Below, piece by piece: positions 5,909 to 20,946 of a stretch of 24,000 bases of DNA. The stretch's first letter is position 1. Every line of letters begins with the position of its first letter. The translations under genes and the position numbers were made by a program. Under the pieces are notes generated by a model that saw only the letters and a list, made by a program, of their open reading frames with translations, did no database searches and was not told the DNA's origin. Origin of the DNA: Spirosoma sordidisoli (GTDB lineage Bacteria; Bacteroidota; Bacteroidia; Cytophagales; Spirosomataceae); NCBI RefSeq assembly GCF_004138325.1, contig NZ_SBLB01000001.1, positions 1,039,855-1,063,854 on the forward strand, given 5' to 3'.

Positions 5909-6970
5909 ATGAAACTTCTCATCACCGGCGGGGCCGGTTTCGTTGGCTCCTCGATCGCCATCTCGCTAAAAAAGAACTACCCCAACTACCAGATTTTTGC
6001 CCTCGACAACCTCAAACGACGCGGCTCCGAGCTGAGTCTGGCGCGGTTGAAAGCGGCTGGTATCGAGTTTTTACACGGCGACATTCGCAACAAAGAGGAC
6101 TTCGACGCCCTGCCTGCTGTTGATGCGGTCATTGAAGCATCGGCCGAGCCGAGTGTACTGGCCGGCCTCGACGGTACACCCGATTACCTCATCAATACCA
6201 ACCTGTTCGGTACGGTCAATTGCCTCAACTACGCGCTCAAGCATAAAGCCAGTTTCATTTTTCTGTCAACAAGCCGCGTATACCCGATCAAAACGATCGA
6301 AACCTTAAACTTTGCCGAAGCCGAAACCCGCTTCGTGCTGACCGACGATCAGCCGGTTCCGGGCGTTTCGTCGAAAGGGATCGCCGAGAATTTCCCGCTC
6401 GACGGGGCGCGCTCGCTCTACGGAACAACCAAGCTAGCTTCGGAACTGCTCATTCAGGAGTACAACGAGTTTTACGGGCTGAAAACCGTTATTAACCGCT
6501 GTGGCGTCATTACCGGTCCGTGGCAGATGGGCAAGGTCGATCAGGGCGTCATGGTGCTCTGGATTGCCAAACATTACTTCGAACAGCAGCTGGCGTATAT
6601 AGGGTACGGTGGCACCGGCAAACAAACCCGCGACATGCTCCATATCGCCGATCTCTACCGACTGGTGGACTGGGAGCTGCACAACCTCGACGCCGTCAAC
6701 GGCGAAATACTGAACGCCGGCGGCAGCAACGAAAGCTCGGCTTCCCTGCAGGAGCTGACAGCGATTTGTCAGGAAGTAACGGGCAAAACCATTCCCATCA
6801 ACGCCGTAACCGAAAACCGGGCCGCCGACATCCGGCTTTACATCACCGACAACACCAAAGTAACGAACCTGACCGGCTGGAAGCCCGAATTAGGTATCCG
6901 CGAGATTGTCACCGACATCCACGACTGGTTAGATAGTAACAAGGATGCACTGGAGCCGATATTGAAGTAA
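5909..6970 (+). CDS. NAD-dependent epimerase/dehydratase, extended SDR (CDP-paratose 2-epimerase-like)
   Basis: MKLLITGGAGFVGS is a Rossmann start, and STSRVY ... YGTTK supplies the catalytic Ser/Tyr/Lys pattern. The tracked ORF start at 5840 lies inside the kup terminator hairpin, so the ATG at 5909 is preferred. Confidence 0.85.
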   Translation: MKLLITGGAGFVGSSIAISLKKNYPNYQIFALDNLKRRGSELSLARLKAAGIEFLHGDIRNKEDFDALPAVDAVIEASAEPSVLAGLDGTPDYLINTNLFGTVNCLNYALKHKASFIFLSTSRVYPIKTIETLNFAEAETRFVLTDDQPVPGVSSKGIAENFPLDGARSLYGTTKLASELLIQEYNEFYGLKTVINRCGVITGPWQMGKVDQGVMVLWIAKHYFEQQLAYIGYGGTGKQTRDMLHIADLYRLVDWELHNLDAVNGEILNAGGSNESSASLQELTAICQEVTGKTIPINAVTENRAADIRLYITDNTKVTNLTGWKPELGIREIVTDIHDWLDSNKDALEPILK

Positions 6971-7005
6971 TACGTATATTTTTCAACACCTTATTCTCTT
7001 TTCGT

Positions 7006-7035
7006 AAAAATGACCTAGCAAATCGGGTCATTTTT
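7006..7035 (+). terminator. Bidirectional terminator-like hairpin after the epimerase gene
   Basis: AAAAATGACC (7006-7015) is the reverse complement of GGTCATTTTT (7026-7035), with a 10-nt loop and an A-tract/T-tract arrangement. Confidence 0.6.
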
Positions 7036-7155
7036 CATTTATACACATGTGTGTCAATAGCTTATCCCCCTTATTAATGAATTATATAATTATAAAGCCG
7101 TATAATGTATACATAAATTGGCTATATTGACAGACTACTTTTAGCAGATTGTAAA

Positions 7156-7584
7156 ATGACAGTTGAGTCTCTTTGGAGTCAGGTTTCTGAAAGTAAGCTA
7201 CAAAAATTACTAATGTTGAAGCTTGTAGCAAAAAATGGTCAAAAAGACTTGAAGCCCAGTCGTTACATTGTTTTTCTTGACACACCCATGAAGGATGATG
7301 GAACTGACAATGATGAAGTAGCTGGTGATGGCATCTACACTTCAGTCGAGACAAAGGCAGTTAGTGCCGAGGAGCCAACCTTTCAGTACCTATACGCTAG
7401 TAAGGAGCTTCAATCAAAAGCAAGATACAGTTGGCCAAAACTGACCATAAAGTGTTCCGATTTCTGCCTTGTATTTAACGGACAGAAATGCTGTGGTCAA
7501 ACTTGTTCAAAAGGCTCCATTTTTGGTGACCACGCCTACGTCTGTATTGGCGGCTGCGGTTGCAGTTCTGAATTTTCCTGGTAG
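7156..7584 (+). CDS. Hypothetical 142-aa protein with 8-Cys C-terminal module
   Basis: An uninterrupted 142-codon ORF in AT-rich DNA, where stop codons should be frequent. It contains DDGTDNDEVAGDGIYT, which resembles a Ca-binding-type loop I recall from secreted beta-sandwich domains. The last 43 residues carry C-x3-C-x7-CC-x3-C-x12-C-x3-C-x-C. There is no signal peptide and no upstream in-frame start (a stop lies at 7114-7116). Confidence 0.5.
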   Translation: MTVESLWSQVSESKLQKLLMLKLVAKNGQKDLKPSRYIVFLDTPMKDDGTDNDEVAGDGIYTSVETKAVSAEEPTFQYLYASKELQSKARYSWPKLTIKCSDFCLVFNGQKCCGQTCSKGSIFGDHAYVCIGGCGCSSEFSW

Positions 7585-7592
7585 AAATTATA

Positions 7593-7639
7593 ATACCATT
7601 GATGTCAATGCTTAATGCTAGCATTGACATCAATGGTAT
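7593..7639 (+). terminator. 20-bp perfect hairpin (terminator/attenuator, or tandem operators)
   Basis: ATACCATTGATGTCAATGCT (7593-7612) is the reverse complement of AGCATTGACATCAATGGTAT (7620-7639), with a 7-nt loop, followed by TTTG. Each arm contains its own CATTGA-NN-TCAATG palindrome. Confidence 0.6.
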
Positions 7640-7657
7640 TTGTAAAATACTGCGTTC

Positions 7658-8521
7658 ATGGATACCTTAATACAATTGCTCAGTGTATGTAGGTTAGCTC
7701 TAATTACACTATTTTTGCATTTTTCATCAACAGCTATTAGTGGAATAGTTATCTCTTTGCTAACAAGAGACAATATAGGGTCTGTATATTTAGAGTTATT
7801 AGCTAGAACATTTGTGGAGGTATTTTTTGCAGTAATTATCTTGTTCTTATATAACAAAAAATATACTAATAATATATATCAACAAATAAGTATAGTAAAT
7901 ATTAACAAATGTATTAACGTATCAGCAATAGCTACTGGCTTTTTCTTGTTTAATATATTTGTTATGTGGGTTTTATGCATCCAAAAATCCATATCAATCA
8001 ACCAAGAAATGAATGTTATAGATTTTTTCATATTTATGGTTCGAAGCATAGTTTTAGGTTTAAGAGGCTCCTTACTGGAAGAAATAATTTACAGGGGTTT
8101 TCTACAAAAAAAACTTATGAGTTATTCTTATAGGCTTAATTCTATTATTGTAAGTTCGTTAGTATTTAGTACAAGTCATCTAATCGGCATACAATCCTTT
8201 ACTGAAGGGCTTTGGACATTTGTCGACGTCTTTCTATTTTCTGTAGTTGTTGGCACCATATTCATCAAATATAATAGTTTCGTATATAGTTTTGCTTTTC
8301 ACTGGATATGGAATTTATTTATCTCCATGCACTGGGTATATGGAGATTGTAATTTACCAAAAAAAGACTATTTGTTTAGAACATACATATACTGTGATAA
8401 TTATTTATCTAATTTTGAATTCCTTAAACAAGCACCTATTACATACATACTCACCTCCTTTGCCTTCCTTTTTATATTAAATAAAAACCTAAGAGCATGT
8501 TTAAAAATTGAGAAAGTTTGA
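7658..8521 (+). CDS. CPBP family intramembrane glutamic endopeptidase (CAAX protease / Abi, PF02517-like)
   Basis: All three CPBP motifs are intact and in order: EExxxR (LLEEIIYRGF), FxxxH (VFSTSHL) and HxxxN (FHWIWNL). The protein has multiple hydrophobic helices. The gene has very low GC. Confidence 0.8.
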   Translation: MDTLIQLLSVCRLALITLFLHFSSTAISGIVISLLTRDNIGSVYLELLARTFVEVFFAVIILFLYNKKYTNNIYQQISIVNINKCINVSAIATGFFLFNIFVMWVLCIQKSISINQEMNVIDFFIFMVRSIVLGLRGSLLEEIIYRGFLQKKLMSYSYRLNSIIVSSLVFSTSHLIGIQSFTEGLWTFVDVFLFSVVVGTIFIKYNSFVYSFAFHWIWNLFISMHWVYGDCNLPKKDYLFRTYIYCDNYLSNFEFLKQAPITYILTSFAFLFILNKNLRACLKIEKV

Positions 8522-8559
8522 TAATCGTGTCAATTTTGTGGTCGACAAACTACAGAGCC

Positions 8560-8637
8560 ATGACCAAAGGGTGGAAGCCACTGACCGACTCTCAATGGGC
8601 CGTAATCGCTCCGGCGACAGCAAAACGGCAAAGCTAA
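8560..8637 (+). pseudogene. 25-codon remnant resembling the N-terminus of an IS5-type (DUF4096-like) transposase
   Basis: The region translates to MTKGWKPLTDSQWAVIAPATAKRQS then a stop. L(T/S)DxQWxxIxP is the usual start of DUF4096-type transposases. The downstream sequence does not continue the family in any frame. Confidence 0.35.
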
Positions 8638-8713
8638 ACAGCTCAAGCGCATCAAACCGGGCTTTTTTAATCCACCAGGCGGAGGCCCTATCCATGTACC
8701 TGGCTTCGAGTGG

Positions 8714-9526
8714 ATGGGGCTATTACTGGCGGGCTTGAAGAGCCACCCTATGGTTGCCTTCTTTCGCTGGTATACCACCTGGGTTGAGTACGCGCAAGAC
8801 CGCTTAAGAGTACGGTCGACCTTGTTAAGCCAAGCGGTCAGCGCCTTTGGCGGGCAACTCTGGCCTGTCTTCGACCAGGTTTATGCCGGTAAACGCTGGC
8901 TGGGGGAGCTACTCACCCAACGGGTGGGCTCTGTCCTACGCTGGCCTACACGGTATCAGTTGGTCGATGACAAGGGTCGGCGAGCGGCCTGGCAGATCGC
9001 CCGGCGCCGGACCGCCCAAGTGCGTCGCCGGGTGTGGGATACCCATCACCAGCAGTGGCGGACAGGAGCGGCCCTGGCGCTGGCCGTGAATCATCCGGAT
9101 TATCCTGATGAAGCGCTGTGGCTGGTTGTCTGCCGGCTGGGTAAAGGCAGGAAGCCCTGGTATCTGCTGACCAATTAGGCCTGTGATCAGGCGGATGTGC
9201 TGTGGTCGGTTGTGCTGGCCTACGCGCGTCGGTGGCAGATTAAGGCCTGCTGGCGCTTTTCCAAGAGTGAGTTGGCTCTTCAGTCACCCCGGCTATGGTT
9301 CTGGGCTAACCGGCTCAAGCTGATGATGATGGTAGCGTTGGTGTATGCCTTTTTACTGTCCTTGCTGATAACCAACCAACACTCTTACCGCCTGGTTTTG
9401 ATGCGAAGTTGGTGCCATCGAACCGGAAAGCGGTGCCAGTCTGCACTGACACCGCTTTATCGGCCACGAGCCGCCTTGGCTGCTCTGCTCACTACCTACC
9501 AAGTCATCACTCAAACTTCGGGATGA
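8714..9526 (+). pseudogene. IS4-family DDE transposase pseudogene (5'-truncated, in-frame stop, catalytic E lost)
   Basis: ORFs 8714-9178 and 9197-9526 share one frame and are separated only by a TAG at 9176-9178, within ...PWYLLTN*ACDQADVLWSVVLAYARRWQIK.... The IS4 signature Y-x2-R-x3-E-x6-K reads YARRWQIKACWRFSK, so the catalytic Glu is Lys (AAG at 9242-9244). The DRGFAG block reads DQVYAG. The region that should hold the first catalytic Asp is absent. Confidence 0.75.
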
Positions 9527-9542
9527 CTCATGTAACAATCAA

Positions 9543-10409
9543 TTACCTCCTGTCCTCGACGCTGTTGATCCAGTCTGGCAGTCCTGTTTCTGCAAGCCAG
9601 CTGTAGCTCTCCTGAAAAAACAACGCGATATGGGCGGTATCGGCGGCCTCTGAAATAGGCAACAGCGCCCCCTGCCAGTCCGGCCCGACGCGCCACTGGC
9701 CTGCCGAAAGCGCCGGTGCGGCCCCGAACCCGACGGCTTGCCCACGCTGGTAGCCCGACAGGTAAAAATAAGGTTCGCTGCACACCGAATCGGCGATGGC
9801 GTAGCCGGCCCAGATGGCTGCTTTTTCGCGTCCGTCGGGGTCGGTTTGGGCGTAGTACACACCCGTGTCGAAGTGGTGCGGCCAAATCCGAATGTCGCTC
9901 TCCCGACCGCTCCATTCGTTCAGGGTCTTTAACGCTGCGTTGGCGGTTGTTCGCCAATGCGCCCAGGTCAGCAACTCAGCGGGGCGTTTGTAAACGGCCT
10001 GTGCGGCAACGGGCGGCTGATCCAGCTGGTAGTTGAGCGGGTTACCGCCAGCCATACCCCAGGCCTGCATCTGACTCGTCCACCAAATCAGGGCGTCGGC
10101 CGGGGTTCGGTTTTCGGGCGAGAAGGTTGCCGAGATATGTTCCCGTTCGTCGATGAACTGCAACGTAAACGTGTTCATGTCAATGACCAGCCGTAGCTGG
10201 TGCCCGTTGTGGGTAAAGGGCCGGCCTTCGAGCCGGTGCCGGTCGCTGTTCCAGCACAGGTTCGTCTGGCTGTCGTCGGGTCGGGACGGCAACCACTGCA
10301 TAGCCGTCAGCGCCAGGAGCTGGGCGAGGCTGTGCAGGGTCTGGTCCGCCTGGTTTACCGCATTCATTGGTACGACCATTGGGGCAGTGGCGCGCTGGCC
10401 GTTACACAT
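9543..10409 (-). CDS. Hypothetical protein, DUF5996-like (remote, from memory)
   Basis: 288-aa ORF whose ATG overlaps the stop of the upstream Crp/Fnr gene (ATGTGTAA, 8-nt overlap). The blocks TLHSLAQLL, LRLVIDMNTFTLQFID, IRIWPHHFDTG, EPYFYLSGY and ALLPISEA...FFQESY parallel the order of conserved blocks I recall for DUF5996. Confidence 0.55.
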   Translation of the reverse strand: MCNGQRATAPMVVPMNAVNQADQTLHSLAQLLALTAMQWLPSRPDDSQTNLCWNSDRHRLEGRPFTHNGHQLRLVIDMNTFTLQFIDEREHISATFSPENRTPADALIWWTSQMQAWGMAGGNPLNYQLDQPPVAAQAVYKRPAELLTWAHWRTTANAALKTLNEWSGRESDIRIWPHHFDTGVYYAQTDPDGREKAAIWAGYAIADSVCSEPYFYLSGYQRGQAVGFGAAPALSAGQWRVGPDWQGALLPISEAADTAHIALFFQESYSWLAETGLPDWINSVEDRR

Positions 10410-11076
10410 TGAGCAAAGCCGGGTCGGTAATCCGGATCTGGCTACGGTCGTATTCCAGCATGCCCGCCAGCCGAAACTCGTTGAAAAGCTCGGTAACGGT
10501 TTGCCGGTTGCTGCAAATCATCCGGGATATATCCTTGTGCGAAAGGTAATTGGTAAGCACATTTGGCTGGCCCGGCTTGGCGTCTTTGTCGGCCCACTCT
10601 TTCAGAAACAACCGCAGCCGCGTCCGCACATCCTTGAACATCAGGTTGGCGTACCGATTCTGAAGCTGCCGAAAACGCAGGCCAATCAGTTTGGTATACC
10701 GGATGCCGAGCGCCGGGTTCTGCCGCATGATCTGTTCAAAATCAGACACCAGAAAGCTACAGAACGTAACATAATCGGACAGCACTACGGCGTACTGATT
10801 GCTGGCGTGGGGGGTCAGGGTAAACTGACCGAACAGATCGCCCGGCCGCAGAATCTCAATCAGTTGTTCGTCTCCGTCATTGTCCAGCTCAACCAGCTTC
10901 AGGATGCCCACTTTAATGGTGAAAATACGTTTTTCTTCCTGCGGAAGGGTAATCACGTCGCCTTTACGACCGGTACGAAAGTGGCTGAGGTAGGTCAGTT
11001 CATTCAGGTGATTACGTGACAATTCATCGAAAAGCTGATGATTGTGTAAGTACCAGTATTTTGCTTCAAAAGTCAT
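10402..11076 (-). CDS. Crp/Fnr family transcriptional regulator
   Basis: An N-terminal cNMP-binding beta-barrel (ILRPGDLFG) is followed by a C-terminal HTH (LSHKDISRMICSNRQTVTELFNEF). Confidence 0.85.
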   Translation of the reverse strand: MTFEAKYWYLHNHQLFDELSRNHLNELTYLSHFRTGRKGDVITLPQEEKRIFTIKVGILKLVELDNDGDEQLIEILRPGDLFGQFTLTPHASNQYAVVLSDYVTFCSFLVSDFEQIMRQNPALGIRYTKLIGLRFRQLQNRYANLMFKDVRTRLRLFLKEWADKDAKPGQPNVLTNYLSHKDISRMICSNRQTVTELFNEFRLAGMLEYDRSQIRITDPALLNV

Positions 11077-11175: not shown

Positions 11176-11822
11176 TTACCCTTCCCGTTTCAGTTTGCCG
11201 TGCATGGCGTGGCGGAGCTTCTCGACTTTGGGCATCGATACGCGCTGAATATAGGGCTGGTCAGGATGCCGTTTGCAGTAATTCTGATGATACCGCTCGG
11301 CGGGGTAAAACACGGCGAAGGGGACAACCTCCGTTACGACCGGGCCAGCGTAGTGCTGAGCCGCATTGACCCGCTGAATGGCCGCCAGAATCTCCTGCTT
11401 CTCGGCGGGAGTGCGATAAAACGCCACTGACCGGTAATCCCGCCCCACATCGGGCCCCTGGCGGTTAAGCGTCGTTGTCGGTCGTGGCCCGCAAAAAATG
11501 CGTCCAGCAAATCGTGGTAGCTTATGAGGTCGGGATTGTAGTACACCTGCACCGATTCGGCATGACCCGTCTGGTCGGTACTCACCTGCTGATAGGTCGG
11601 ATTGGCTACGTGACCGCCCGAATAGCCCGACACTACCTCTCGAACACCCCGCAGCTGCTCGAAGCCTTCTTCCTGCGCCCAGAAGCAGCCACCCGCAAAC
11701 GTGGCGACGGCTTCGCCGGGTTTAAGCCTGGGCAAACCCGCCGGTGCTGTGTCCGGCTCCTGGGCCCAGCCCGGTTGACTCACGAGCCAAAACCCCAGTA
11801 TAATTAATTGTCTAAGTCGCAT
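11176..11822 (-). pseudogene. msrA: Peptide-methionine (S)-S-oxide reductase MsrA, interrupted by a 1-nt frameshift
   Basis: ORF 11334-11822 encodes a signal peptide, the GCFW active site and sequence through FFAGHD. ORF 11176-11448 continues in another frame with (PTTTLNRQGPD)VGRDYRSVAFY... A single missing C in a C-run (minus-strand CACGACCGACA where CACGACCCGACA is expected; plus-strand GG at 11480-11481) restores HDPTTTLNRQG. Confidence 0.85.
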
Positions 11823-11834
11823 GGTATAAGCCGT

Positions 11835-12344
11835 TCATGGTTTTTTGACAAATTCCAGCGCCACCCCGTTTATGCAATACCGCAGACCGGTGGGCGCCGG
11901 ACCGTCGTCAAAAACATGCCCCAGGTGAGCATCGCACACGGCGCATTGCACTTCGGTCCGAACCATGCCGTAGCTGGTGTCACTTACGTCTTTCACGATG
12001 GATTTACTGATCGGTTTGTAGAAACTGGGCCAGCCGGTTCCTGACTCAAATTTGGTGTCGGAGCTAAAGAGCGGCTCGTGGCAACCCGCGCAGCGATATA
12101 CGCCATGCGCATGGTTACTGGCCAGCGCGCTCGTAAAGGCGCGTTCGGTTCCGCGGTTGCGCATGACGGCGAACTGAGCGGGCGTCAGTACCTTCTGCCA
12201 CTCAGCCTCGGTCTTTTCGTACCGCCGGGGCGGTTTACCATCGTAGACGCTATAGGCTACCGGCCCAAAAGCGGATGCCAGCAGCCCGACAAAACCGATC
12301 AGGAGCAGTACGGCTAAGCGTTTCGATATGAGTTGTCGATGCAT
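11835..12344 (-). CDS. msrB: Peptide-methionine (R)-S-oxide reductase MsrB with N-terminal signal/anchor
   Basis: The zinc motifs CAGC ... CAVC and the catalytic RYCINGVAL motif are present. The N-terminal hydrophobic segment is [16 protein letters not shown]. Confidence 0.9.
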
Positions 12345-12367
12345 GATGTATGGGTTTGTTCATGGAA

Positions 12368-13063
12368 TTAATACAATACCGAGACGGGTAGCAGCGCGCT
12401 TACCTGATCGGCAATGTCGTGCGCCACGGCTCGCTTGGACTTCAGCCCGAAGCGGTGGATCGCGCCATTGCGATGAATGAGGGTTACCTGATTGGTGTCG
12501 TGGCCAAAGGCAGCTCCGGCATCTTTGAGCGAGTTGAGGACAATCAGGTCGAGGTTTTTACGAACCAGTTTGGCCCGGGCGTTAGCCAGTTCGTTGTCGG
12601 TTTCCAGCGCAAAACCAACCGTACATTGATCGTCGCGCTTCCGGGCGCCGAGGCTGGCCGCAATGTCGGCGGTCCTGACAAGCTCCAGGCTAAAGTCCGG
12701 CTCTTTCTTCTTGATTTTTCGGTCGGCTACTACCTTAGGCGTGTAGTCGGCCACGGCCGCAGCCAGTACCGTGATGGCGGCCGTTGGGAAGTGGTCCAGA
12801 CAGGCTGCGTACATCTGGGCCGCCGAGCGAACGTGCACCACCTGGATGGTTGGATACGCAACGGTCAGGTGGGTAGGACCGCTCACGAGCGTTACGCTGG
12901 CCCCGCGTTCGGCCAGCACGTCGGCGAGGGCGTACCCCATTTTGCCCGTCGAATGATTGCTGATGTACCGGACCGGATCGATGTCTTCCTGGGTGGGTCC
13001 GGCCGTGAGCAGGACGTTCAGGCCGGTCAGGCTTGTGTTGATGGGTGCAAATAAAGAGTCCAT
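12368..13063 (-). CDS. coaB: Phosphopantothenate--cysteine ligase domain protein (stand-alone CoaB, no CoaC half)
   Basis: 231 aa. LLTAGPTQEDIDPVRYISNHSTGKMGYALA ... AAAVADY ... VGFALET ... KNLDLIVLN aligns by eye with the C-terminal CoaB half of E. coli Dfp/CoaBC. No flavoprotein decarboxylase domain is encoded upstream. Confidence 0.85.
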   Translation of the reverse strand: MDSLFAPINTSLTGLNVLLTAGPTQEDIDPVRYISNHSTGKMGYALADVLAERGASVTLVSGPTHLTVAYPTIQVVHVRSAAQMYAACLDHFPTAAITVLAAAVADYTPKVVADRKIKKKEPDFSLELVRTADIAASLGARKRDDQCTVGFALETDNELANARAKLVRKNLDLIVLNSLKDAGAAFGHDTNQVTLIHRNGAIHRFGLKSKRAVAHDIADQVSALLPVSVLY

Positions 13064-13115
13064 TCGTTTGTTGGTTATGCGTGTTTGATGGCGCCAGGCC
13101 CGTGAGACCAGGCGC

Positions 13116-14225
13116 TTATTGTTTATCGTGCTGAGTCCGTTTCCAGATGCCGACGGCTTCGCAAAGGGTCATATAGGCGACACCCCGCTGGTGGTTTTCG
13201 CGGCTGATGTCATACAGCACACGCCAGTGGTGAAACAGCACCCGGTAGGCCTCCCACAGCGAGAAGCCGGGCTGGTAGATGTGTGCGGGTTCGGCACCGG
13301 CCCCGTTCAGCTCGAGAATCCGGATGTGCCGACCGGCGTACAGATCAGCCACAGTCCGGCAGCGCAGATCGTATCGGCCATAATAGAACCCCTCAATGGG
13401 CTGGCTGATGCGATCGAATACGCGGGTTAGCTCAGGCGTGATGAGGTGGTTGGCATCCAGAAATTTGGTTCCTTTGCTGTGGTTGCCGATAGACACCAGC
13501 GTCATCAGTTCGCCCGGGGCCGGTATCTCATGGAACCGGTTACCGTAGCGGGCCGTCAGGGCGGGTAGCTGCAGAATGGCCCGCTCGTTTTGTCGGATGA
13601 GGGCTTCGATGCAGTCGCGTCCGTTCCCCCGAATGGTCAGGAATTCTTTCTGAACAATCGACGAAATTACTCCCTGTAGCTGCCCGGGAAACCGGTAGTA
13701 AAACACGCCCAGTTCGAGTGGTTCGTCGACATATTCCTGAATCAGAAAATCGCCGGGGCTGCTCTGGCTGTAGTTGACCAGGCTCTCCCAGTCCCCGATC
13801 GTCTCGACCCGCCAGCCGCGTTCGCCCACGTTGGGTTTGGCAATTAAGGGGTAGGTCAGGCCCTGATCGGCCATCTGCGCAAAAACGGTATCGAGCTGGG
13901 TGGAGGCCGAAACGAACAGCGTCTTCGGCTTGAATTCGGCGCTGATGCGGTCCAGAATACCGGCCTTCGACTCACCCAGCAGCCCACCCGTTTCGATGGA
14001 TGGGTTGGCAGCCGAGAAGAAAAATAGCGACCGGGCCCTGATCGACAGCCAGATGTGGTAGATGAATACCGGGAAATACACCACCGCAAACGGCCAGTAC
14101 TCCCACGACCGCAGGCGGATAAAAAACGGGGTAGCAAGCCGCAGCCGGGCTAACCGGGCCCGCAACGGTTGCCCGAGCGAGGCAGACACCCCGGGGCGTT
14201 GGTCGAGTGAACTAAGCGATTGCAT
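13116..14225 (-). CDS. Membrane-anchored ATP-grasp fold ligase (RimK/GshB-like), function unknown
   Basis: An N-terminal hydrophobic helix (WPFAVVYFPVFIYHIWL) is followed by ATP-grasp landmarks: LIAKPNVGERG, FLIQEYV and ILELNGAGAEP (ExN metal ligands). Confidence 0.65.
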   Translation of the reverse strand: MQSLSSLDQRPGVSASLGQPLRARLARLRLATPFFIRLRSWEYWPFAVVYFPVFIYHIWLSIRARSLFFFSAANPSIETGGLLGESKAGILDRISAEFKPKTLFVSASTQLDTVFAQMADQGLTYPLIAKPNVGERGWRVETIGDWESLVNYSQSSPGDFLIQEYVDEPLELGVFYYRFPGQLQGVISSIVQKEFLTIRGNGRDCIEALIRQNERAILQLPALTARYGNRFHEIPAPGELMTLVSIGNHSKGTKFLDANHLITPELTRVFDRISQPIEGFYYGRYDLRCRTVADLYAGRHIRILELNGAGAEPAHIYQPGFSLWEAYRVLFHHWRVLYDISRENHQRGVAYMTLCEAVGIWKRTQHDKQ

Positions 14226-14934
14226 AAGCGGGTCGGATGGTTTGCTGGCTGAACGTAGACTGCGTAAAATCTTCGTAGATAAACTCGGCGTCCCCGTCCT
14301 GCTGCACGATGCTCGTCAGGCTGATGGTCAGCAACGCATGCTGCCGATTCATACGGATACTGGTTTCGGCATCACCATCACCGGCCGACTGGTGAAAATG
14401 CCGGATGTCATCAACCGTCGGGTTGGGGTGTTGCGGTAGCCAGTCTCCAAACCAGCCTTCGCGCTTCTTGATCATGTCGGGCGTGTAGAGGGTCACCGAC
14501 GACCAGATGTGGGCGCGGTTGGGGTCTTTTTCGTGCGTGAACAGCCGCTGTCCAGTCCAGCGGAGTTCGGTCAGACGCTCTGCTTCGGCAACCAGCAGGG
14601 TAAACGGTTCGATGTGGCCGAAGTCGTAGGCGGCCGAGAACGCGTTGATGGACGGATAAGTGAAGAAGTGCGGAATAACCAGCCCCCGGCTCTGTTTATA
14701 GGCCGGTTGCACCTGGTGCGGCACGAAGGCACCGTTGAGTAGGCAAACGGTGGTTCGGGCTGAGCTGGCAATCCAGGTACCCTGGCTCTGCGGGTCCTGC
14801 GGGAAGATTACGGCCTGGTCGCCAATCGAAAACGCTTTGGGTGGGCGCGCGGTCGGCCGAATCGCTTTCTCGTCCCGGCTGTGAGTCAGGATAAAGCCGT
14901 TGGTGGTAAGGGGTACATAGGTGGCGGTACACAT
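14212..14934 (-). CDS. NRDE family protein (TANGO2 homologue, PF05742-like)
   Basis: The protein starts MCT... and has SRDE at residues 19-22, in the position of the NRDE motif. At 240 aa the length is typical. Its stop lies 14 nt inside the ATP-grasp ORF. Confidence 0.7.
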   Translation of the reverse strand: MCTATYVPLTTNGFILTHSRDEKAIRPTARPPKAFSIGDQAVIFPQDPQSQGTWIASSARTTVCLLNGAFVPHQVQPAYKQSRGLVIPHFFTYPSINAFSAAYDFGHIEPFTLLVAEAERLTELRWTGQRLFTHEKDPNRAHIWSSVTLYTPDMIKKREGWFGDWLPQHPNPTVDDIRHFHQSAGDGDAETSIRMNRQHALLTISLTSIVQQDGDAEFIYEDFTQSTFSQQTIRPAYAIA

Positions 14935-14986
14935 AATCGGGCTGCTTGATTACCTGTTTTATAGTCAAGCAACGTACCAGCCTTTG

Positions 14987-15029
14987 CACGAAGCCCAAAC
15001 AACTGGTTTACAGTTGTTTGGGCTTCGTG
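14987..15029. terminator. 19-bp perfect hairpin between the SDR gene and the NRDE gene
   Basis: CACGAAGCCCAAACAACTG (14987-15005) is the reverse complement of CAGTTGTTTGGGCTTCGTG (15011-15029), with a 5-nt loop. It lies 65 nt downstream of the minus-strand SDR stop. A T-run is present only on the plus-strand side. Confidence 0.65.
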
Positions 15030-15093
15030 ATTTTGCATAGACCAGCCAGGCCGGTTACGATATTTCGTGAGATTTCCGGCAGGCCGTAACAGG

Positions 15094-15939
15094 CTACGGC
15101 AGAATGGCATTCTCGGCAACCTCGCGCCAGCGGTTTAGATCAGCCTGAACACTGTCCAGTTTGGTGCTGATGGTCTGGATGGCGATGCGGCCCAGTGGTA
15201 ACCGCAGCGGTGGGTTATCTATCCGGGCGATGTGGATAATGGCTTCGGCCGCCTTCTCTGGGTCTCCTTCCTGCTGGCCGTTCCCCTGTTTCATCCGGTT
15301 ACGAAAGAGGCCCGCCGTTGGCTGATAATCGGCAAGTTGACGCACGGCTTCCCGGAAGGCGGTACCGGCAAAGTTGGTTCGGAAGGGGCCCGGCTCAACA
15401 ATCGTCAATCGAATACCCAGGGGAGCCAGCTCGCCGGCCAGGGCTTCGCTGAGTCCCTCCAGCGCAAACTTACTGGCGTTGTAAATACCAAAGCCCGCAA
15501 ACGCTTTAAAACCCCCGTGCGACGACATTTGAATGATGTGCCCGCTGCGTTGTTGCCGAAACTGGGGCAGCAGCAGCTGTGTCAGGGCGATTGTTCCGAA
15601 GAAGTTGGTTTCGAACACGTCGCGAATTTCCTCGTCTGACGCTTCCTCCACGGCACCTGCAAACCCGAATCCCGCATTATTGACCAGCACATCAACGCGG
15701 CCGAATTGCGTCAGAACCATGCGTACAACCGCTTCCCGCTGCATCGGCTGGGTTACATCCAGCAGCATCCCGATTCCTTTACCCGCGTTTGCTGCGCTGA
15801 ATGCATCGGCCTGGGCCTGCTGACGGAACGTACCGATCACAACGTCTCCGCTGTTCATCACCGCTTCGGCCAGGGCCTGCCCTAAGCCACTGGATACGCC
15901 CGTGATGAACCAGATTTTGAGTTGATCGCTTGTCTTCAC
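15094..15939 (-). CDS. Short-chain dehydrogenase/reductase (classical SDR)
   Basis: TGVSSGLG glycine-rich loop, NNAG, and S...YNASK catalytic residues. Confidence 0.9.
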   Translation of the reverse strand: MKTSDQLKIWFITGVSSGLGQALAEAVMNSGDVVIGTFRQQAQADAFSAANAGKGIGMLLDVTQPMQREAVVRMVLTQFGRVDVLVNNAGFGFAGAVEEASDEEIRDVFETNFFGTIALTQLLLPQFRQQRSGHIIQMSSHGGFKAFAGFGIYNASKFALEGLSEALAGELAPLGIRLTIVEPGPFRTNFAGTAFREAVRQLADYQPTAGLFRNRMKQGNGQQEGDPEKAAEAIIHIARIDNPPLRLPLGRIAIQTISTKLDSVQADLNRWREVAENAILP

Positions 15940-16481
15940 TGCTTCAGCAACTCGATTTGACAGCTAATTCTGACCGTCTCTCCAACAGCCAGACCGCCAA
16001 AATCCATGATATTGTTCCAGGTCATGCCCCAATCCTTGCGGTTGATAGCGCCCGTTACTTTAAGCCCCGCTTTGGTGTTGCCAAACGGATCTTTCAGTAC
16101 GATGCCCATGAACTGAACATCCAGTTCAACGGGTCGTGTGATGCCCAGCAGCGTTAGGTCGCCAGCCATTTTGTACCGATTTTTCTCCACGACGCGCATA
16201 CCGGTGCTGACGAAGGTCATTTGCGGATGTTTTTCGGCGTGGAAGAAGTCGGCCGAGCGCAGGTGGTCATCCCGCTGCCTGTCCAGCGTATCAACGCTGC
16301 TTACATCAACGTGCATCGTCACGGTGGCATCCGAAAAGTCGTCGGATTCGGCCGCAACGGTTCCATCATACCGGGTAAAATGGCCTTCGGTTTCGGTGAT
16401 GCCGAAGTGGGTAACGGAGAAGCCAATTTTGCAGTGTGCGGGTTCAAAAACCCATTTTGTGCGTTGTTCCTGTTGTGTCAT
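15936..16481 (-). CDS. YceI family polyisoprenoid-binding protein
   Basis: KIGFSVTHFGITETEGHFTRYDG and a ~180-aa lipocalin-like length are typical of YceI. There is a 4-nt ATGA overlap with the SDR gene. Confidence 0.85.
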   Translation of the reverse strand: MTQQEQRTKWVFEPAHCKIGFSVTHFGITETEGHFTRYDGTVAAESDDFSDATVTMHVDVSSVDTLDRQRDDHLRSADFFHAEKHPQMTFVSTGMRVVEKNRYKMAGDLTLLGITRPVELDVQFMGIVLKDPFGNTKAGLKVTGAINRKDWGMTWNNIMDFGGLAVGETVRISCQIELLKQ

Positions 16482-16544
16482 TATGGTAGTTATTTGACGG
16501 ACACAAAGGTATCCTGCCCCTACCCGACGGGGTTAGAACGGGAC

Positions 16545-17429
16545 TTACTTTACCCGGTACTTTTCGGACATTGTCTGTTTGAAGGCAGCAGGTGACAGCC
16601 CCGTTTCGCTCTTGAAAACGCGGGCGAAATAAGACGAGTCGAGAAAGTTGAGCTGCGTGGCTACTTCCGTAATGGTCAGGTCGGAGAAGGTAAGCAGGCG
16701 CCGGGCCTCCAGCATACTTCTCGACCGGACAACGTCGCTGGCCGTTTTTCCGGTTACCTGTTTACAAACCACGTTGAGGTGGTGTTGCGTAATATTCAGC
16801 TGGTCGGCGTAGAAACTAACCGGCCAATTCTGGGCGAAGTGCTGATCGAGCAGGTTCTTTAGGTTCTTGTACAGAATCACGTATTTCCGGGACGATGCCT
16901 GTTCTGTCTGGCCGTCGACGCACCGCTGAATCTGGGCGAGCAACACGTGCAGCAGCGACTGCCCGATGGCGGTTGACCGGTCGTTTCGGCTCTGTTCCCG
17001 GCAAAGCAGGTCAATGGTATGCCGGATGTCGGCAAAGTTTCCGGCGCTCGGCTTCAGCAGTGGATTGGCATAGAAGTTATCCAGAAAACTCAGCTCGAAC
17101 AGCTTATCCTTATCCTGATGATTGAGCAGAAAAAAACTCTCGGTGAACAGGATACTTCCGCCCGTGAGCGGCTCCCACTCTTCAAAAAAATGGAGCTGCC
17201 CCGGTGAGATGAAAAACAGCGATTGCGGGCTTAATTCATAATCGGTGTAGTCGATGGTCTGACGACTTTTTCCCGAATCAATCCAGATAACTTCGTAGAA
17301 CGTGTGTTTGTGCGGATCATCAACGTCGGGCTCCTCCATCTGCTCAAACCGCAGAATCTCGAACTCAGTCCGGTTCTCGGGCTGGTTGATAAAGTGACCA
17401 ATGGAATAGAGTGGGAAAGTAGTTTGCAT
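16545..17429 (-). CDS. AraC family transcriptional regulator (cupin-like N-domain)
   Basis: C-terminal double HTH: YADQLNITQHHLNVVCKQVTGKTASDVV ... VATQLNFLDSSYFARVFK. Confidence 0.9.
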   Translation of the reverse strand: MQTTFPLYSIGHFINQPENRTEFEILRFEQMEEPDVDDPHKHTFYEVIWIDSGKSRQTIDYTDYELSPQSLFFISPGQLHFFEEWEPLTGGSILFTESFFLLNHQDKDKLFELSFLDNFYANPLLKPSAGNFADIRHTIDLLCREQSRNDRSTAIGQSLLHVLLAQIQRCVDGQTEQASSRKYVILYKNLKNLLDQHFAQNWPVSFYADQLNITQHHLNVVCKQVTGKTASDVVRSRSMLEARRLLTFSDLTITEVATQLNFLDSSYFARVFKSETGLSPAAFKQTMSEKYRVK

Positions 17430-17633
17430 AGTACGGTGGCTGGGTGCCTAGTTTTTTCAGGCGCGGGTTCAGCGTGGCTGGCGCGCGGGTCAGGCCGTCT
17501 CTGCCTCCGGTTGAGAAGCGTCTTGTGTAGCCGGTCTGTGTTTTCTGCGGTTCGGTCGGTTAACTTAGCGTTTCACCGGTTTGGGAGTCGATCTGTTGTT
17601 GGCTAACGCTCCCAGGCTGCTGGTTGTCAACCG

Positions 17634-18218
17634 ATGGATAAAGAACCACTAATCCTGTTTATTGAGCAAATCCTGCCCATCTCCCGGGCAACGGTCGAAC
17701 GCATAGCCAACCAGTTTGACGATAATGTGTTTGCCAAAAATGAGTACTTCGTCCGGGCGGGTAAAGTCAGCAATGACTATCTGTTCCTGACCGATGGCGT
17801 TATGCGGGCCTTTACCCTCGATACCGACGGCAGGGAAGTGACCACCGGATTTTACGTTAAAAACCGGGTCGTGTTCGAGGTGTCATCGTTTTTTATGCGT
17901 CGGATTTCCGACGAAAACATTCAGGCCCTGACCGACTGCCGGGGCTTTGTGCTGACCTTCGACAAGTTAAACCAGCTATTCCATACCATGCCCGAATTTC
18001 GGGAGTTTGGGCGGGCGATGCTGGCCCGGGAATTTGCGGCCTTCAAACAACGCACGCTGGCCCTGATTAACCAAAGCGCCGAGGAACGCTATGCCGATCT
18101 CATCCGCACCAACCGGGAGGTCTTTCAATACGCCCAGTTGAAGCACATTGCTTCGTACCTCGGCATTACCGACACATCGCTGAGCCGAATCCGGCGCGAA
18201 TACGCCAAAAAGGGCTGA
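17634..18218 (+). CDS. Crp/Fnr family transcriptional regulator
   Basis: A cNMP-binding-like N-domain is followed by a C-terminal HTH (HIASYLGITDTSLSRIRRE). Confidence 0.85.
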   Translation: MDKEPLILFIEQILPISRATVERIANQFDDNVFAKNEYFVRAGKVSNDYLFLTDGVMRAFTLDTDGREVTTGFYVKNRVVFEVSSFFMRRISDENIQALTDCRGFVLTFDKLNQLFHTMPEFREFGRAMLAREFAAFKQRTLALINQSAEERYADLIRTNREVFQYAQLKHIASYLGITDTSLSRIRREYAKKG

Positions 18219-18286
18219 CCCATTTCTTGCCATTTGGCAAGTACGTTCTTTTCATTTGCGAAGCTGCGCCCAGCCTTAGCCCGCGT

Positions 18287-18324
18287 CCTTTGTATCGTAA
18301 ACAGACACGATTATGATACAAAGG
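18287..18324 (+). promoter_or_regulatory. 10-bp inverted repeat enclosing the start codon of the NmrA-like gene
   Basis: CCTTTGTATC (18287-18296) is the perfect reverse complement of GATACAAAGG (18315-18324). The ATG at 18313-18315 sits at the base of the right arm. Confidence 0.35.
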
Positions 18325-19320
18325 AATGAGCCAGTATTGATAACGTCAGCGACGGGAAAAACGGGTTACGAAACCACCCTTCAGTTGCTGAACGACGGAT
18401 ATCCCGTCCGGATCTTTGTCCGATCCCGCAACAAACGGGCGCTGGAACTGGAAAAACGCGGGGCCGAGGTGGCCATCGGTGCGTTTAGCCAGTACGAGTC
18501 GCTGGCGAAGGCGCTAAAAGGCGTCAGGCGGGTGTACTACTGTTACCCGATCATGCCTGGTATGCCGCAGAACGTAGCCCTGTTTATCCGGGCAGCCAGG
18601 GAAGCCCAACTGGAGGCCGTTGTCTTTATGGGACAGTGGCTGGCCGAATTTGCCGATCAGGAAAGCCGGCTCACCAACGACATTAAAACGGCTTACCAGC
18701 TGCTCGAAGACTCCGGTCTGCCTGTCATCTATTTCAATCCGGGATACTTTGCGGAGGTGGTTATCCCGTTTCTCGAATTTATTATTCAGCTGGGTATTAT
18801 GCCTTCGCCGTACGGGGCCGGGAAATGTCCCTGGGTTTCGAGTCGGGATCTGGGGGCGGCAGCTGCGGCTTTGCTCAGGAATCCGGCCCCCTACGTCGGC
18901 CTGAAAATACACCCGACGGGTCCGGAGTCGGTTTCGGCGGAGCAGATGGCGGCTGTTTTTTCCAGAATCCGTGGCCGGAAAGTCAGACTCCTGCCCCTGC
19001 CCGACCAGCTGTTTCTGAAAGCCGGCTTCATGACCGGAGAGGAATTCGGCTATGACGCGTTCAGCATTGTTCAGGCTAATTGTTACAACCGGCAGTTCCG
19101 ACTAAACCGATTCGATGTGGGCGGGCCAACCACCGTCGTTAAGGAACTGACCGGCCGCGAACCCGAAGATTTTGAGACCATTGCCCGCCGGTTCATCGAG
19201 CAGTCGCCCTACCGACAACGCAGTTTCTCCCGCTGGCTCTCGGCCGTCACGAAGTTTATGACAATGCCCTTTACAACCCTGCCCACCAAACGGCAGCTTG
19301 CCGCGTTGAACCAACCCTGA
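18313..19320 (+). CDS. NmrA-like NAD(P)-binding protein
   Basis: N-terminal VLITSATGKTG Rossmann motif, an atypical-SDR/NmrA pattern, 335 aa. Confidence 0.8.
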   Translation: MIQRNEPVLITSATGKTGYETTLQLLNDGYPVRIFVRSRNKRALELEKRGAEVAIGAFSQYESLAKALKGVRRVYYCYPIMPGMPQNVALFIRAAREAQLEAVVFMGQWLAEFADQESRLTNDIKTAYQLLEDSGLPVIYFNPGYFAEVVIPFLEFIIQLGIMPSPYGAGKCPWVSSRDLGAAAAALLRNPAPYVGLKIHPTGPESVSAEQMAAVFSRIRGRKVRLLPLPDQLFLKAGFMTGEEFGYDAFSIVQANCYNRQFRLNRFDVGGPTTVVKELTGREPEDFETIARRFIEQSPYRQRSFSRWLSAVTKFMTMPFTTLPTKRQLAALNQP

Positions 19321-19431: not shown

Positions 19432-20946
19432 CTACGGCCGCTGGATACCCAGTTTTTTCATGCGCGAGTCCAGCGTGGTTGGTATCATCCCCAGGATTTC
19501 GGCGGCTCCGTTTTTGCCGCTGACTTTCCAGCGGGTGTGCTCCAGCACGGCCAGGATATGGTTGCGCTCGGCTTCTTCCATGGTTATGAGTCCGGTGGGT
19601 TTGGGAACCGACTGTTTCCGCCGGAGCCAGTCGCCGAGTTCCAGTTTCCGGCCCGACGAGATGATCAGTGAGCGTTCGACGACGTTTTCCAGCTCGCGGA
19701 TGTTGCCCGGCCAGTGGTACTCCATCAGGGTATCGATCACGTCTGGTGGAATAACGTCGATCTGGCGACCAATACCGGGGCCGTGTTTGGTGCAGAAGTG
19801 GCGGACCAGCAGCGGAATATCTTCTTTACGCTCGCGCAGGGGCAGGCTTTGGATAGGGAATACGTTGAGCCGGTAGTATAAATCTTCCCGAAAGCGTCCG
19901 TCGCTGATTTCTTTGTCCAGATCACGGTTGGTGGCGGCAATGACCCGCACGTTGACTTTGAGGGTTTTTGTGCCCCCCACCCGCTCCAGTTCACCTTCCT
20001 GCAACACCCGCAGCAGTTTAGCCTGCAAATCGATCGGCATTTCTCCGATCTCGTCCAGGAAAATCGTTCCCCCGTCGGCCAGTTCGAAGCGACCGATTTT
20101 CTGGGCGGTGGCCCCGGTGAACGCGCCTTTCTCGTGGCCAAAGAGTTCACTCTCGATCAGGGTGGCGGGCAGGGCAGCGCAGTTGATTTTCACCAGCGTT
20201 TTGTTCCGGCGGCTGCTCCGGTTGTGCACGGCCCGCGCCAGTAGCTCCTTGCCCGTACCCGATTCGCCCAGAATCAGGACCGACGTTGTGGTGGGGGCAA
20301 CCTGCTCGACCTGCCGGAGCACCTTCCCGAAGGCTTTGCTCTGACTAACGATTTCCTCGAAGTTGCTGGTCTGCTTGATTTCTTCGCGCAGGTACGTATT
20401 CTCGGCCTGTAGCTTGTTCTTCAGCTGCTCGACTTCGGCCAGTGCTTTCGAGAGCGACTCGGTTCGTTCGGCAACGCGTTGTTCGAGCAGGGCGTTGGCA
20501 ACCTGCAGTTCGCGCTGCAACCCGCGCAGGGCCAGGTGCGTGTTGATGCGGGCCAGTACCTCCTGCAGCTGAAAGGGTTTGGTGATATAATCCACCGCGC
20601 CCATGTTGAAGCCGTTGACCTTATCGATCGTTTCGGCCAGGGCCGTCATGAACAGCACCGGAATAGCCTGCGTGGTGTCTGCCCGTTTGAGTCGGCGGCA
20701 GGTTTCGAAGCCGTCCATGCCAGGCATCATCACGTCGAGCAGGATAAGATCGGGCTGGGCCAGCTGCGCCTGCTCGATGGCACTTTTGCCGTCGCGGGCC
20801 ACCAGCACTTTGTACTTGAACCGGGTCAGGGTTTCGTACAACACGCTGATGTTGTTAGGCATGTCGTCTACGATGAGGATGGTGCGGCCGGTGCCGATGC
20901 TGTCCATGTCGTCCGTAGCCGCGTGGTTCGTAATGAGCGCGCTCAT
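19432..20946 (-). CDS. Sigma54-dependent response regulator (REC - coiled coil - AAA+ - Fis-type HTH)
   Basis: REC ([14 protein letters not shown]), Walker A (GESGTGKE), the GAFTGA sigma54-contact loop ([15 protein letters not shown]) and a C-terminal HTH ([21 protein letters not shown]). Confidence 0.95.

Follow-up and report, generated by a model that had tools for sequence, protein, structure and literature searches.

A TANGO2-family (NRDE) and ATP-grasp gene pair with a stand-alone CoaB paralogue in Spirosoma sordidisoli: a candidate synthetase/amidase cassette

In Escherichia coli, glutathionylspermidine synthetase/amidase (GspSA) combines two activities that make and break one amide on a thiol metabolite, with oxidative stress setting the balance between them. 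Deficiency of TANGO2 is a lethal human metabolic disease, and the function of this protein is disputed: haem carrier, acyl-coenzyme A (acyl-CoA) binder, and cysteine-type N-terminal nucleophile (Cys-Ntn) hydrolase have each been put forward. Here, we analysed a 24,000-nucleotide (nt) stretch of Spirosoma sordidisoli DNA (contig NZ_SBLB01000001.1, positions 1,039,855 to 1,063,854; hereafter the window, with positions counted from its first letter) containing a minus-strand string of five reading frames, which encode an NRDE/TANGO2-family protein, an ATP-grasp ligase, a stand-alone CoaB, and the methionine sulfoxide reductases MsrB and MsrA, the last of them split. As judged from gene order and natural fusions, the evolutionary core of this string is a functionally coupled pair, NRDE and ATP-grasp.

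The TANGO2 crystal structure has been grouped with Cys-Ntn acyl-amide enzymes, its structural relatives being bile-salt hydrolase, NAAA, acid ceramidase, and isopenicillin-N acyltransferase, and its haem binding was described as non-specific (PMC13044924, 2026). TANGO2 has been reported to bind acyl-CoA, and vitamin B5 improves TANGO2 deficiency (PMC11867700; bioRxiv 10.1101/2022.11.04.514597), a condition that also causes lipid imbalance (PMC13044924, PMC11179719). The bacterial DUF833 protein SO0126 (Shewanella HtpA) has been reported to bind haem and to show a cytochrome c phenotype (PMC10470608); a haem role of TANGO2 has been challenged (PMC12782551).

Conservation, gene order, and natural fusions of the NRDE–ATP-grasp pair

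The string begins with the gene for the NRDE/TANGO2-family protein (14212–14934, minus strand; 240 amino acids, aa), which overlaps by 14 nt the gene for an ATP-grasp carboxylate-amine ligase with a conserved hydrophobic N-terminal module (13116–14225, minus strand; 369 aa). After a 52-nt gap comes the stand-alone paralogue of CoaB, the phosphopantothenate-cysteine ligase (PPCS) (12368–13063, minus strand; 231 aa), followed after 23 nt by MsrB, which has an N-terminal membrane anchor or signal (11835–12344, minus strand; 169 aa), and after a further 12 nt by a frameshifted MsrA with a signal-peptide-like N-terminus (11176–11822, minus strand). The junctions of −14, 52, 23, and 12 nt that an earlier reading of the window (the original prediction) had given for these five same-strand genes proved exact, and its family calls for NRDE, CoaB, MsrB, and MsrA hold in Pfam and NCBIfam. 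The ATP-grasp protein shares 99% identity with one from Spirosoma sp. 209, and the window is matched collinearly, at 95% DNA identity, by a JGI metagenome contig (L092) that carries the string genes in the same order. Long plus-strand open reading frames (ORFs) of up to 288 aa lie antisense to real genes at 12419–13054, 10153–11019, and 14062–14439; coding assignments over them rest on the minus-strand genes, which have family matches and homologues. No riboswitch, other RNA element, or tRNA was found within the window.

The NRDE protein matches the Pfam family PF05742 (TANGO2) with an E-value of 7.6e-10 (39.8 bits against a cut-off of 22.6). That it keeps the N-terminal Met-Cys together with the SRDE motif (H-S-R-D-E), as originally predicted for Met-Cys and SRDE, was borne out by an alignment of 11 cassette homologues from Bacteroidota and Planctomycetota, in which M1, C2, R20, D21, E22, G52, W54, N67, S82, R83, and G84 are invariant. 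A single-sequence search of the PDB with this protein returned no match and a homologue profile was needed; the profile built from the cassette NRDE homologues matched the human TANGO2 structures 8sv7 and 9bwa (E 0.005, residues 10–118). The NRDE protein is predicted to be a Cys-Ntn hydrolase or acyltransferase.

The ATP-grasp protein showed a borderline Pfam match to TTL (20.8 bits against a cut-off of 20.1) and reached the cut-off of no NCBIfam family, the best being PRK12767 (21 bits against 271). It had been described as RimK/GshB-like, a call that stands for the fold and not for the family: Foldseek searches with an AlphaFold2 (AF2) model were led by the ATP-grasp domain of GshF (3ln6), cyanophycin synthetase (CphA), Ddl, and LysX, with probability 1.0 and E-values of 1e-9 to 1e-5, and no RimK or GshB equivalog was matched, Pfam RimK appearing weakly in fusion relatives. 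Among the window proteins, neither a GshA or GshB equivalog nor GspS was matched (Pfam, NCBIfam). With GshF, cyanophycin synthetase, D-Ala-D-Ala ligases, and LysX leading the fold comparison, the model indicates a ligase of the peptide or amino-acid class that joins a carboxylate to an amine (or to a hydroxyl). K130, GERG 134–137, Q163, R284, D286, E305, and N307 are invariant in 13 ATP-grasp sequences; by analogy, K130 would be the ATP-binding lysine, G134-E-R-G137 the glycine-rich loop, and E305-L-N307 the Mg-binding E-x-N.

The most conserved part of the ligase is an unusual N-terminal module consisting of WEYWPF, a hydrophobic helix, and ARSxFFFSAxNPxIExGG. We do not claim a certain transmembrane helix here, the Kyte-Doolittle value of 1.50 being borderline; the existence of DedA and LysE fusions suggests that the ligase associates with the membrane. 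The ligase family is large and unnamed, with 2,858 cluster representatives (50% identity) at E ≤ 1e-3; the cassette defines an uncharacterised ATP-grasp family.

A scan for the ligase with one genome per species yielded at least 588 loci, and the counts that follow are from the best 80. The NRDE gene lies immediately upstream of the ATP-grasp gene in 27 of these (tblastn), including 21/21 Spirosomataceae loci with enough upstream sequence; L034, L036, L047, and a Saprospiraceae-like metagenome-assembled genome (L078) are likewise among the 27. Neighbour clustering gave the recurrent order YHS (seleno)protein, DoxX (optional), DinB-like protein, NRDE (optional), ATP-grasp, LysE-type protein, and alpha/beta hydrolase (optional), in which the YHS (seleno)protein is present in 43, the DinB-like protein in 56, and the LysE-type protein in 50 loci.

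Natural fusions support a functional link between NRDE and ATP-grasp. The two are joined in a 584-aa protein of Siphonobacter aquaeclarae, found in several independent assemblies, and again in Dyadobacter sp. OTU695. The ligase is also fused to LysE in Psychroserpens, to VTT/DedA, and, in many Planctomycetota, to an alpha/beta hydrolase and DedA together (about 860–900 aa); three clusters (P0337, P0455, and P0465; 1,121–1,158 aa) contain four-domain TANGO2–hydrolase–VTT/DedA–ATP-grasp proteins. Two of three Planctomycete-type contigs carry DinB_2, TANGO2, and the hydrolase–DedA–ATP-grasp fusion in this order, while on the third the fusion comes straight after DinB_2; a 4-nt overlap between the fusion gene and its predecessor is common to all three. 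The cassette is thus found in at least two phyla.

DoxX, Msr, and an MsrQ-like ferric-reductase/Rieske protein occur near the cassette in fewer loci than DinB or YHS. Some members of the family NF041384, 'YHS domain-containing (seleno)protein', are selenoproteins. The YHS neighbour (cluster c3; L006, L009, L024–L080; L081 at 6928–7374 and 9093–9593) belongs to this family (126 bits), which hints at a redox role; it bears a signal peptide along with the motif GGWCAYA. In one Dyadobacter-like and one Planctomycete genome, a set of four genes lies next to the cassette (L082 8219–10813; L083; L089 3247–5531). Two of them encode small membrane proteins, another a membrane protein of some 260 aa, and the fourth a ferric-reductase (MsrQ-like)/Rieske fusion, which is 47% identical between the two phyla.

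The stand-alone CoaB and the methionine sulfoxide reductases

The string CoaB matches PF04127 (DFP) with an E-value of 9e-70 (234.7 bits) and the PDB PPCS entry 5int with 3e-52. It covers positions 182–391 only of the bifunctional CoaBC model TIGR00521 and stays below its cut-off (208.5 against 219.7 bits); no CoaC domain (PF02441) was found in the stand-alone CoaB, and no CoaC gene adjoins it in any of the 14 contexts described below. The CoaB domain of 57 Cytophagales CoaBC proteins has 85 positions conserved at 90% or more, and the stand-alone copies keep the identical residue at 83 of these, a pattern indicating that these copies are under strong purifying selection. Because these positions are kept and PDB PPCS structures match, canonical PPCS chemistry would be the economical reading for the paralogue.

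The closest homologues of this CoaB (67–100% identical, mostly 214–254 aa) occur only in Spirosoma, Fibrella, and Fibrisoma, and the next matches are Cytophagales CoaBC proteins of about 400 aa at about 57–66% identity. In Fibrisoma limi, a single contig carries both forms, a 231-aa CoaB and a 403–405-aa CoaBC, F. montanum likewise has a stand-alone CoaB plus a 403–405-aa CoaBC, and Spirosoma rhododendri possesses CoaBC. This coexistence in the two Fibrisoma species identifies the stand-alone CoaB as a paralogue and tells against a doubt attached to the original prediction, namely that it might be a housekeeping gene split from coaC.

Stand-alone CoaB lies beside NRDE in 14/14 contexts (7 loci of the genome scan and 7 look-ups starting from CoaB itself), and ATP-grasp is present as well in 13 of them. 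The adjacency thus extends beyond one strain, to Spirosoma, Fibrella, Fibrisoma, and Dyadobacter-like genomes. In S. litoris (L081), the order is NRDE, ATP-grasp, CoaB, MsrB, and MsrA, with YHS, LysE, DinB_2, and DoxX on the opposite strand. Three Dyadobacter-like loci (L082, L086, and L087) have a response regulator, NRDE, ATP-grasp, LysE, and CoaB, with an alpha/beta hydrolase in addition in L086 and L087, and a locus basal in the Spirosoma/Fibrella/Fibrisoma CoaB clade (L088) has an NRDE-sized gene with no Pfam hit, followed by ATP-grasp, LysE, CoaB, and the alpha/beta hydrolase. The context without the ligase is a metagenome contig (L084, 5086–6720) with kinase, regulator, NRDE, and CoaB. 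Genes of a conjugative transposon (DUF3875, DUF4133, and DUF4134) adjoin NRDE–CoaB there, and mobile DNA may have reshaped this operon.

CoaB is present in 7 of the 27 genome loci with NRDE and ATP-grasp. Three reference Dyadobacter genomes have the operon without it, which marks the CoaB paralogue as an insertion retained in part of the family, and the Fibrella musci locus likewise has no stand-alone copy. In an unbootstrapped neighbour-joining tree, the stand-alone copies form two clades. Two independent recruitments are not claimed; both clades use one slot between LysE and the hydrolase, and a single insertion is favoured for this reason. As far as these comparisons go, CoaB is a retained paralogue specific to the NRDE operon.

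MsrB matches PF01641 (SelR) with an E-value of 2e-50 and TIGR00357 with 193.2 bits (cut-off 113), and its residues 12–30 are strongly hydrophobic (Kyte-Doolittle 2.29). The N-terminus of MsrA is signal-peptide-like (MRLRQLIILGFWLVSQPGWA/QE). These two N-termini suggest that MsrB and MsrA are probably extracytoplasmic. The MsrA of the original prediction was right in family and position, but the gene is not intact, a frameshift that had gone unnoticed: relative to L092, where msrA encodes an intact protein of 214 aa, it carries a 2-nt insertion at about 11478–11479. The MsrA fragments match PF01625 (PMSR) and reach 95.2 and 47.4 bits in TIGR00401, each below the cut-off of 108.1 for the whole model. 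The frameshift is either a pseudogene mutation or an assembly error, and msrB upstream is intact. From their distribution, MsrB and MsrA appear to be variable add-ons that were added in the Spirosoma/Fibrella branch.

Promoter, regulators, and surroundings of the string

When the 200-nt regions preceding NRDE were compared across 30 loci, with shuffled sequences as a control, the pattern TGG[CTA]A[CT]-N5-TTG was found 40–50 nt upstream of the NRDE start in 20/30 loci, against a mean of 0.02 loci after shuffling. In the window, this sigma-54-type −24/−12 motif is TGGTACGTTGCTTG, followed by AC (14966–14979, minus strand), 45 nt upstream of the NRDE ATG, and reads TGGTAC-N5-TTGA at −45; a strict search for TGGCAC-N5-TTGC had missed it, and the motif emerged from the upstream-region comparison. 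The coding-strand sequence TGGTACGTTGCTTGAC (14966–14979 plus two bases) lies directly downstream of a 19-bp perfect hairpin (14987–15029) between the stop codon of an SDR gene and the promoter. This hairpin, already pointed out in the original prediction, was confirmed: the 71-nt stretch that contains it (14975–15045) folds with −40.1 kcal/mol (z = −8.9), and Fibrella arboris (L033) has a hairpin with a T-run at the equivalent place. It is likely to terminate the YceI–SDR unit.

No Bacteroidetes sigma-A −7 motif (TAnnTTTG) was found on the minus strand between 11176 and 14980, nor was any terminator-like site found in the gaps between the string genes; counts of sigma-70 consensus promoters and intrinsic terminators were no higher than chance. 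Given the conserved sigma-54-type motif, the lack of internal −7 motifs, and the lack of terminators in the gaps, the earlier proposal that the string is a single operon is well supported at the level of sequence, and the string is probably driven by a sigma-54 promoter.

A candidate activator is encoded 4.5 kb upstream of the string and on the same strand. It is a sigma-54-dependent response regulator with receiver, Sigma54_activat, and HTH_8 domains (19432–20946, minus strand), which is paired with a hybrid PAS-GAF histidine kinase (20943–23291, minus strand); rpoN itself lies outside the window. Orthologues of the regulator (cluster c12) lie directly upstream of NRDE in L001, L008, L015, L017, L018, L020, L021, L082, L086, and L087, and orthologues of the kinase (cluster c22) are present in L001, L003, L008, and L010. 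It is probable that this kinase and regulator activate the NRDE promoter. The cassette suggests a sigma-54-controlled envelope stress regulon in Cytophagales. Between the pair and the promoter, the window contains AraC, YceI, and SDR genes (minus strand) and genes for a cNMP-binding protein and NmrA (plus strand) at 15094–19320; many relatives are without this block, which therefore looks inserted into a regulator–target unit.

On the downstream side, a Crp/Fnr-family regulator (10402–11076, minus strand) follows msrA after 99 nt and is a possible tail of the transcription unit; a regulator of this family follows CoaB in Fibrella aquatilis (L010). Next to it lies a conserved orphan (9543–10409, minus strand; likely about 265–277 aa) with the motifs WPHHFDTGVYY, AAIWAGYAIAD, and PYFYLSGY. 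The orphan travels with the cluster in L004, L010, L012, and L081, and the L012 copy overlaps the end of the ATP-grasp gene. It had no Pfam, NCBIfam, or PDB match, profiles included, and its single-sequence AF2 model was unusable (pLDDT 45). The adjoining stretch, 6929–9532, is a 2.6-kb insertion relative to L092, which has 147 nt there. A part of low GC content (34–42%) contains a 142-aa orphan ORF and a gene for an Rce1-like CAAX protease (7658–8521); the insertion also has, at 8714–9526, two out-of-frame ORFs with no Pfam hit, in which a YARRWQI...K stretch resembles the end of an IS4-type transposase.

Possible functions and comparison with known systems

The reading that we prefer, and hold tentatively, is that NRDE and ATP-grasp act as a synthetase/amidase couple on a cysteine-, pantetheine-, or CoA-linked amide within an envelope oxidative or electrophile stress response, the chemistry being inferred. 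By analogy with GspSA, the substrate would be a small molecule linked to cysteine, pantetheine, or CoA, on which the ATP-grasp ligase would form an amide for NRDE to cleave or transfer. The extra CoaB would supply 4'-phosphopantothenoylcysteine uncoupled from decarboxylation or, alternatively, re-attach cysteine to phosphopantothenate freed by the NRDE enzyme, while a membrane partner (LysE-type or DedA/VTT) would move the product; the whole cassette would belong to the stress response. This reading is suggested by the recruitment of a decarboxylase-free PPCS, the redox-flavoured neighbours, and the published links of TANGO2 to CoA and vitamin B5.

Several observations pull the other way. CoaB and Msr are absent from 73 of the 80 ATP-grasp loci and from every Planctomycete locus examined. 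The conserved functional unit, in which NRDE and ATP-grasp are accompanied by a membrane partner, an alpha/beta hydrolase, and DinB_2, spans two phyla and mostly does without them, so that the CoaB paralogue cannot be required for the core chemistry. The DinB-like matches are weak (E 5.5e-4), and within Cytophagales the conservation of YHS, DinB, ATP-grasp, and LysE may partly be plain synteny. In the window, msrA is broken into the frames 11334–11822 and 11176–11448, and the −12 element is TTGA (mostly TTGA or TTGM among the loci), the canonical form being TTGC. The AF2 model of the ligase is of low confidence (pLDDT 66.8). Finally, a lipid substrate would accord no less well with the DedA and hydrolase fusions and with the likeness of TANGO2 to fatty-acyl-amide hydrolases. 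The original prediction that the three upstream genes make or recycle a low-molecular-weight thiol or a pantetheine derivative is therefore upheld in part: the redox neighbours (DinB_2, YHS, DoxX, and MsrQ-like) speak for it indirectly, the core unit is mostly without CoaB and Msr, and such a product is one inference among several.

The main rival, possible but doubtful in our estimation, is a membrane-lipid amide system, in which ATP-grasp, NRDE, and the alpha/beta hydrolase would make or remodel an amino-acid-containing or N-acylated lipid. NRDE would here be an acyl-amide hydrolase or an acyl-CoA-dependent N-acyltransferase, DedA or LysE would flip or export the lipid, the CoaB paralogue would only raise the CoA supply, and Msr would be unrelated stress cargo. 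DedA is a lipid-scramblase family, and the commonness of alpha/beta-hydrolase–DedA–ATP-grasp fusions in Planctomycetota, the LysE–ATP-grasp fusion, and the conserved hydrophobic N-terminal module of the ligase all agree with this account, as do the structural relatives of TANGO2, all of them acyl-amide enzymes, and the lipid imbalance in TANGO2 deficiency (PMC13044924, PMC11179719). However, it leaves unexplained why a decarboxylase-free PPCS copy is kept in the operon of four genera and why the neighbours (DinB_2, YHS, DoxX, Msr, and MsrQ-like) are redox-flavoured; moreover, the hydrophobic segment of the ligase is borderline for a membrane helix, and the structures that the ligase resembles most in fold are soluble ligases of peptides and amino acids.

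Operon accretion, in which CoaB and MsrB/MsrA are independent stress-useful genes sharing an inducible promoter and not a chemistry, strikes us as unlikely. The sporadic presence of CoaB (the 7 of 27 loci given above) and of Msr genes (a handful of loci) would follow from it, as would the variety of genes downstream of ATP-grasp (LysE, hydrolase, CoaB, Msr, Crp, and the orphan protein) and the plasticity of the region, with AraC–YceI–SDR and cNMP–NmrA inserted upstream and 2.6 kb downstream. Accretion accounts poorly for the finding that all seven look-ups starting from stand-alone CoaB fall in an NRDE operon, for the L084 contig, which keeps CoaB beside NRDE without ATP-grasp, for the purifying selection on CoaB, and for its fixed slot between LysE and the hydrolase in the Dyadobacter-like loci and in the basal member of the Spirosoma/Fibrella/Fibrisoma clade.

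A more specific proposal, which we consider improbable, casts NRDE/TANGO2 proteins as amidases that act on (phospho)pantetheine-type molecules, at the pantothenoyl-cysteamine or pantothenoyl-cysteine bond, and the operon as a route by which CoA or pantetheine would have its thiol end replaced. NRDE would clip an oxidised or alkylated thiol end and release 4'-phosphopantothenate, the decarboxylase-free CoaB would put cysteine back, and ATP-grasp with its membrane partner would handle the released or an alternative amide. If true, TANGO2 would gain a molecular function, and the benefit of vitamin B5 in TANGO2-deficient patients would be explained.

It is very improbable that the NRDE protein is a haem-trafficking chaperone serving envelope haem proteins in the manner of Shewanella HtpA. 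The haem binding and cytochrome c phenotype of SO0126 (PMC10470608) and a haem-type ferric-reductase/Rieske protein near the cassette in two loci fit this role; against it, Cys2, R-D-E, and S-R-G are invariant, as for a catalytic Ntn site, natural fusions link NRDE covalently to three enzyme or membrane domains, genes for haem biosynthesis or cytochrome maturation are absent from all of the neighbourhoods, and haem binding by TANGO2 was found to be non-specific (PMC13044924) and its haem role has been challenged (PMC12782551). Least credible of all is a housekeeping split, with the string coaB as the genome's only CoaB and coaC elsewhere, which the fully canonical PPCS sequence would allow but which conflicts with the presence of both forms in Fibrisoma limi and F. 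montanum, with CoaBC in Spirosoma rhododendri, and with the lack of a stand-alone copy at the locus in Fibrella musci and several Dyadobacter species.

A literature search found no paper that combines TANGO2 with ATP-grasp and none that describes the cassette or a bacterial NRDE–CoaB link, and a search on NRDE/DUF833 and on DedA/DinB/ATP-grasp found nothing relevant; the papers naming both TANGO2 and PPCS concern the human disorder, and one of them has PPCS solely as a step of the CoA pathway. The parts of the cassette are known families, and no characterised system is known to combine them. Three independent guilt-by-association lines (the order shared by two phyla, the translational overlap, and the natural fusions) point to NRDE proteins as enzymes that work at the membrane together with an amide ligase, and four genera (Spirosoma, Fibrella, Fibrisoma, and Dyadobacter-like) further connect them with the step of CoA synthesis that adds cysteine. 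The cassette accordingly offers a testable bacterial handle on the disputed function of TANGO2, in tractable soil bacteria.

Compared part by part with known systems, the string NRDE shares Met-Cys, the NRDE motif, and the GTW and RG motifs with eukaryotic TANGO2 and Shewanella HtpA (PF05742/DUF833), from which it differs in being about 240 aa long and embedded in, or fused to, an enzyme cassette. Cys-Ntn acyl-amide enzymes cleave or transfer non-peptide amide bonds, some of them with acyl-CoA, and the likeness to them is that of human TANGO2 (PMC13044924). The string CoaB, 57–66% identical to the CoaB domain of Cytophagales CoaBC (Dfp) among the matches listed, keeps all PPCS motifs of CoaBC, including the RYISNHSTGKMG and KIKK segments; unlike CoaBC, it has no CoaC domain, is a second copy, and sits in a probable sigma-54 stress operon instead of a housekeeping locus.

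For the synthetase/amidase couple as a whole, the glutathione system (GshA/GshB or GshF, plus GGT) has a common logic, in which one ligase makes X-Cys, an ATP-grasp enzyme extends it, and an Ntn hydrolase degrades the product, and the ATP-grasp half of GshF (3ln6) is the best fold match of the cassette ligase; in the cassette, however, the first ligase would be a CTP-dependent PPCS, and the Ntn enzyme would be the Cys-type NRDE and not the Thr-type GGT. GspSA differs in the fold of its amidase, which is CHAP and not Ntn/TANGO2 (the candidate amidase here being PF05742), with no sequence relationship found, and in being without a membrane partner, an alpha/beta hydrolase, or DinB_2. Its Cys amidase is nevertheless N-terminal to an ATP-grasp synthetase, matching the order of NRDE and ATP-grasp in the string and in the natural fusions, and on this analogy glutathionylspermidine synthetase/amidase would be the nearest architectural counterpart of the NRDE–ATP-grasp pair.

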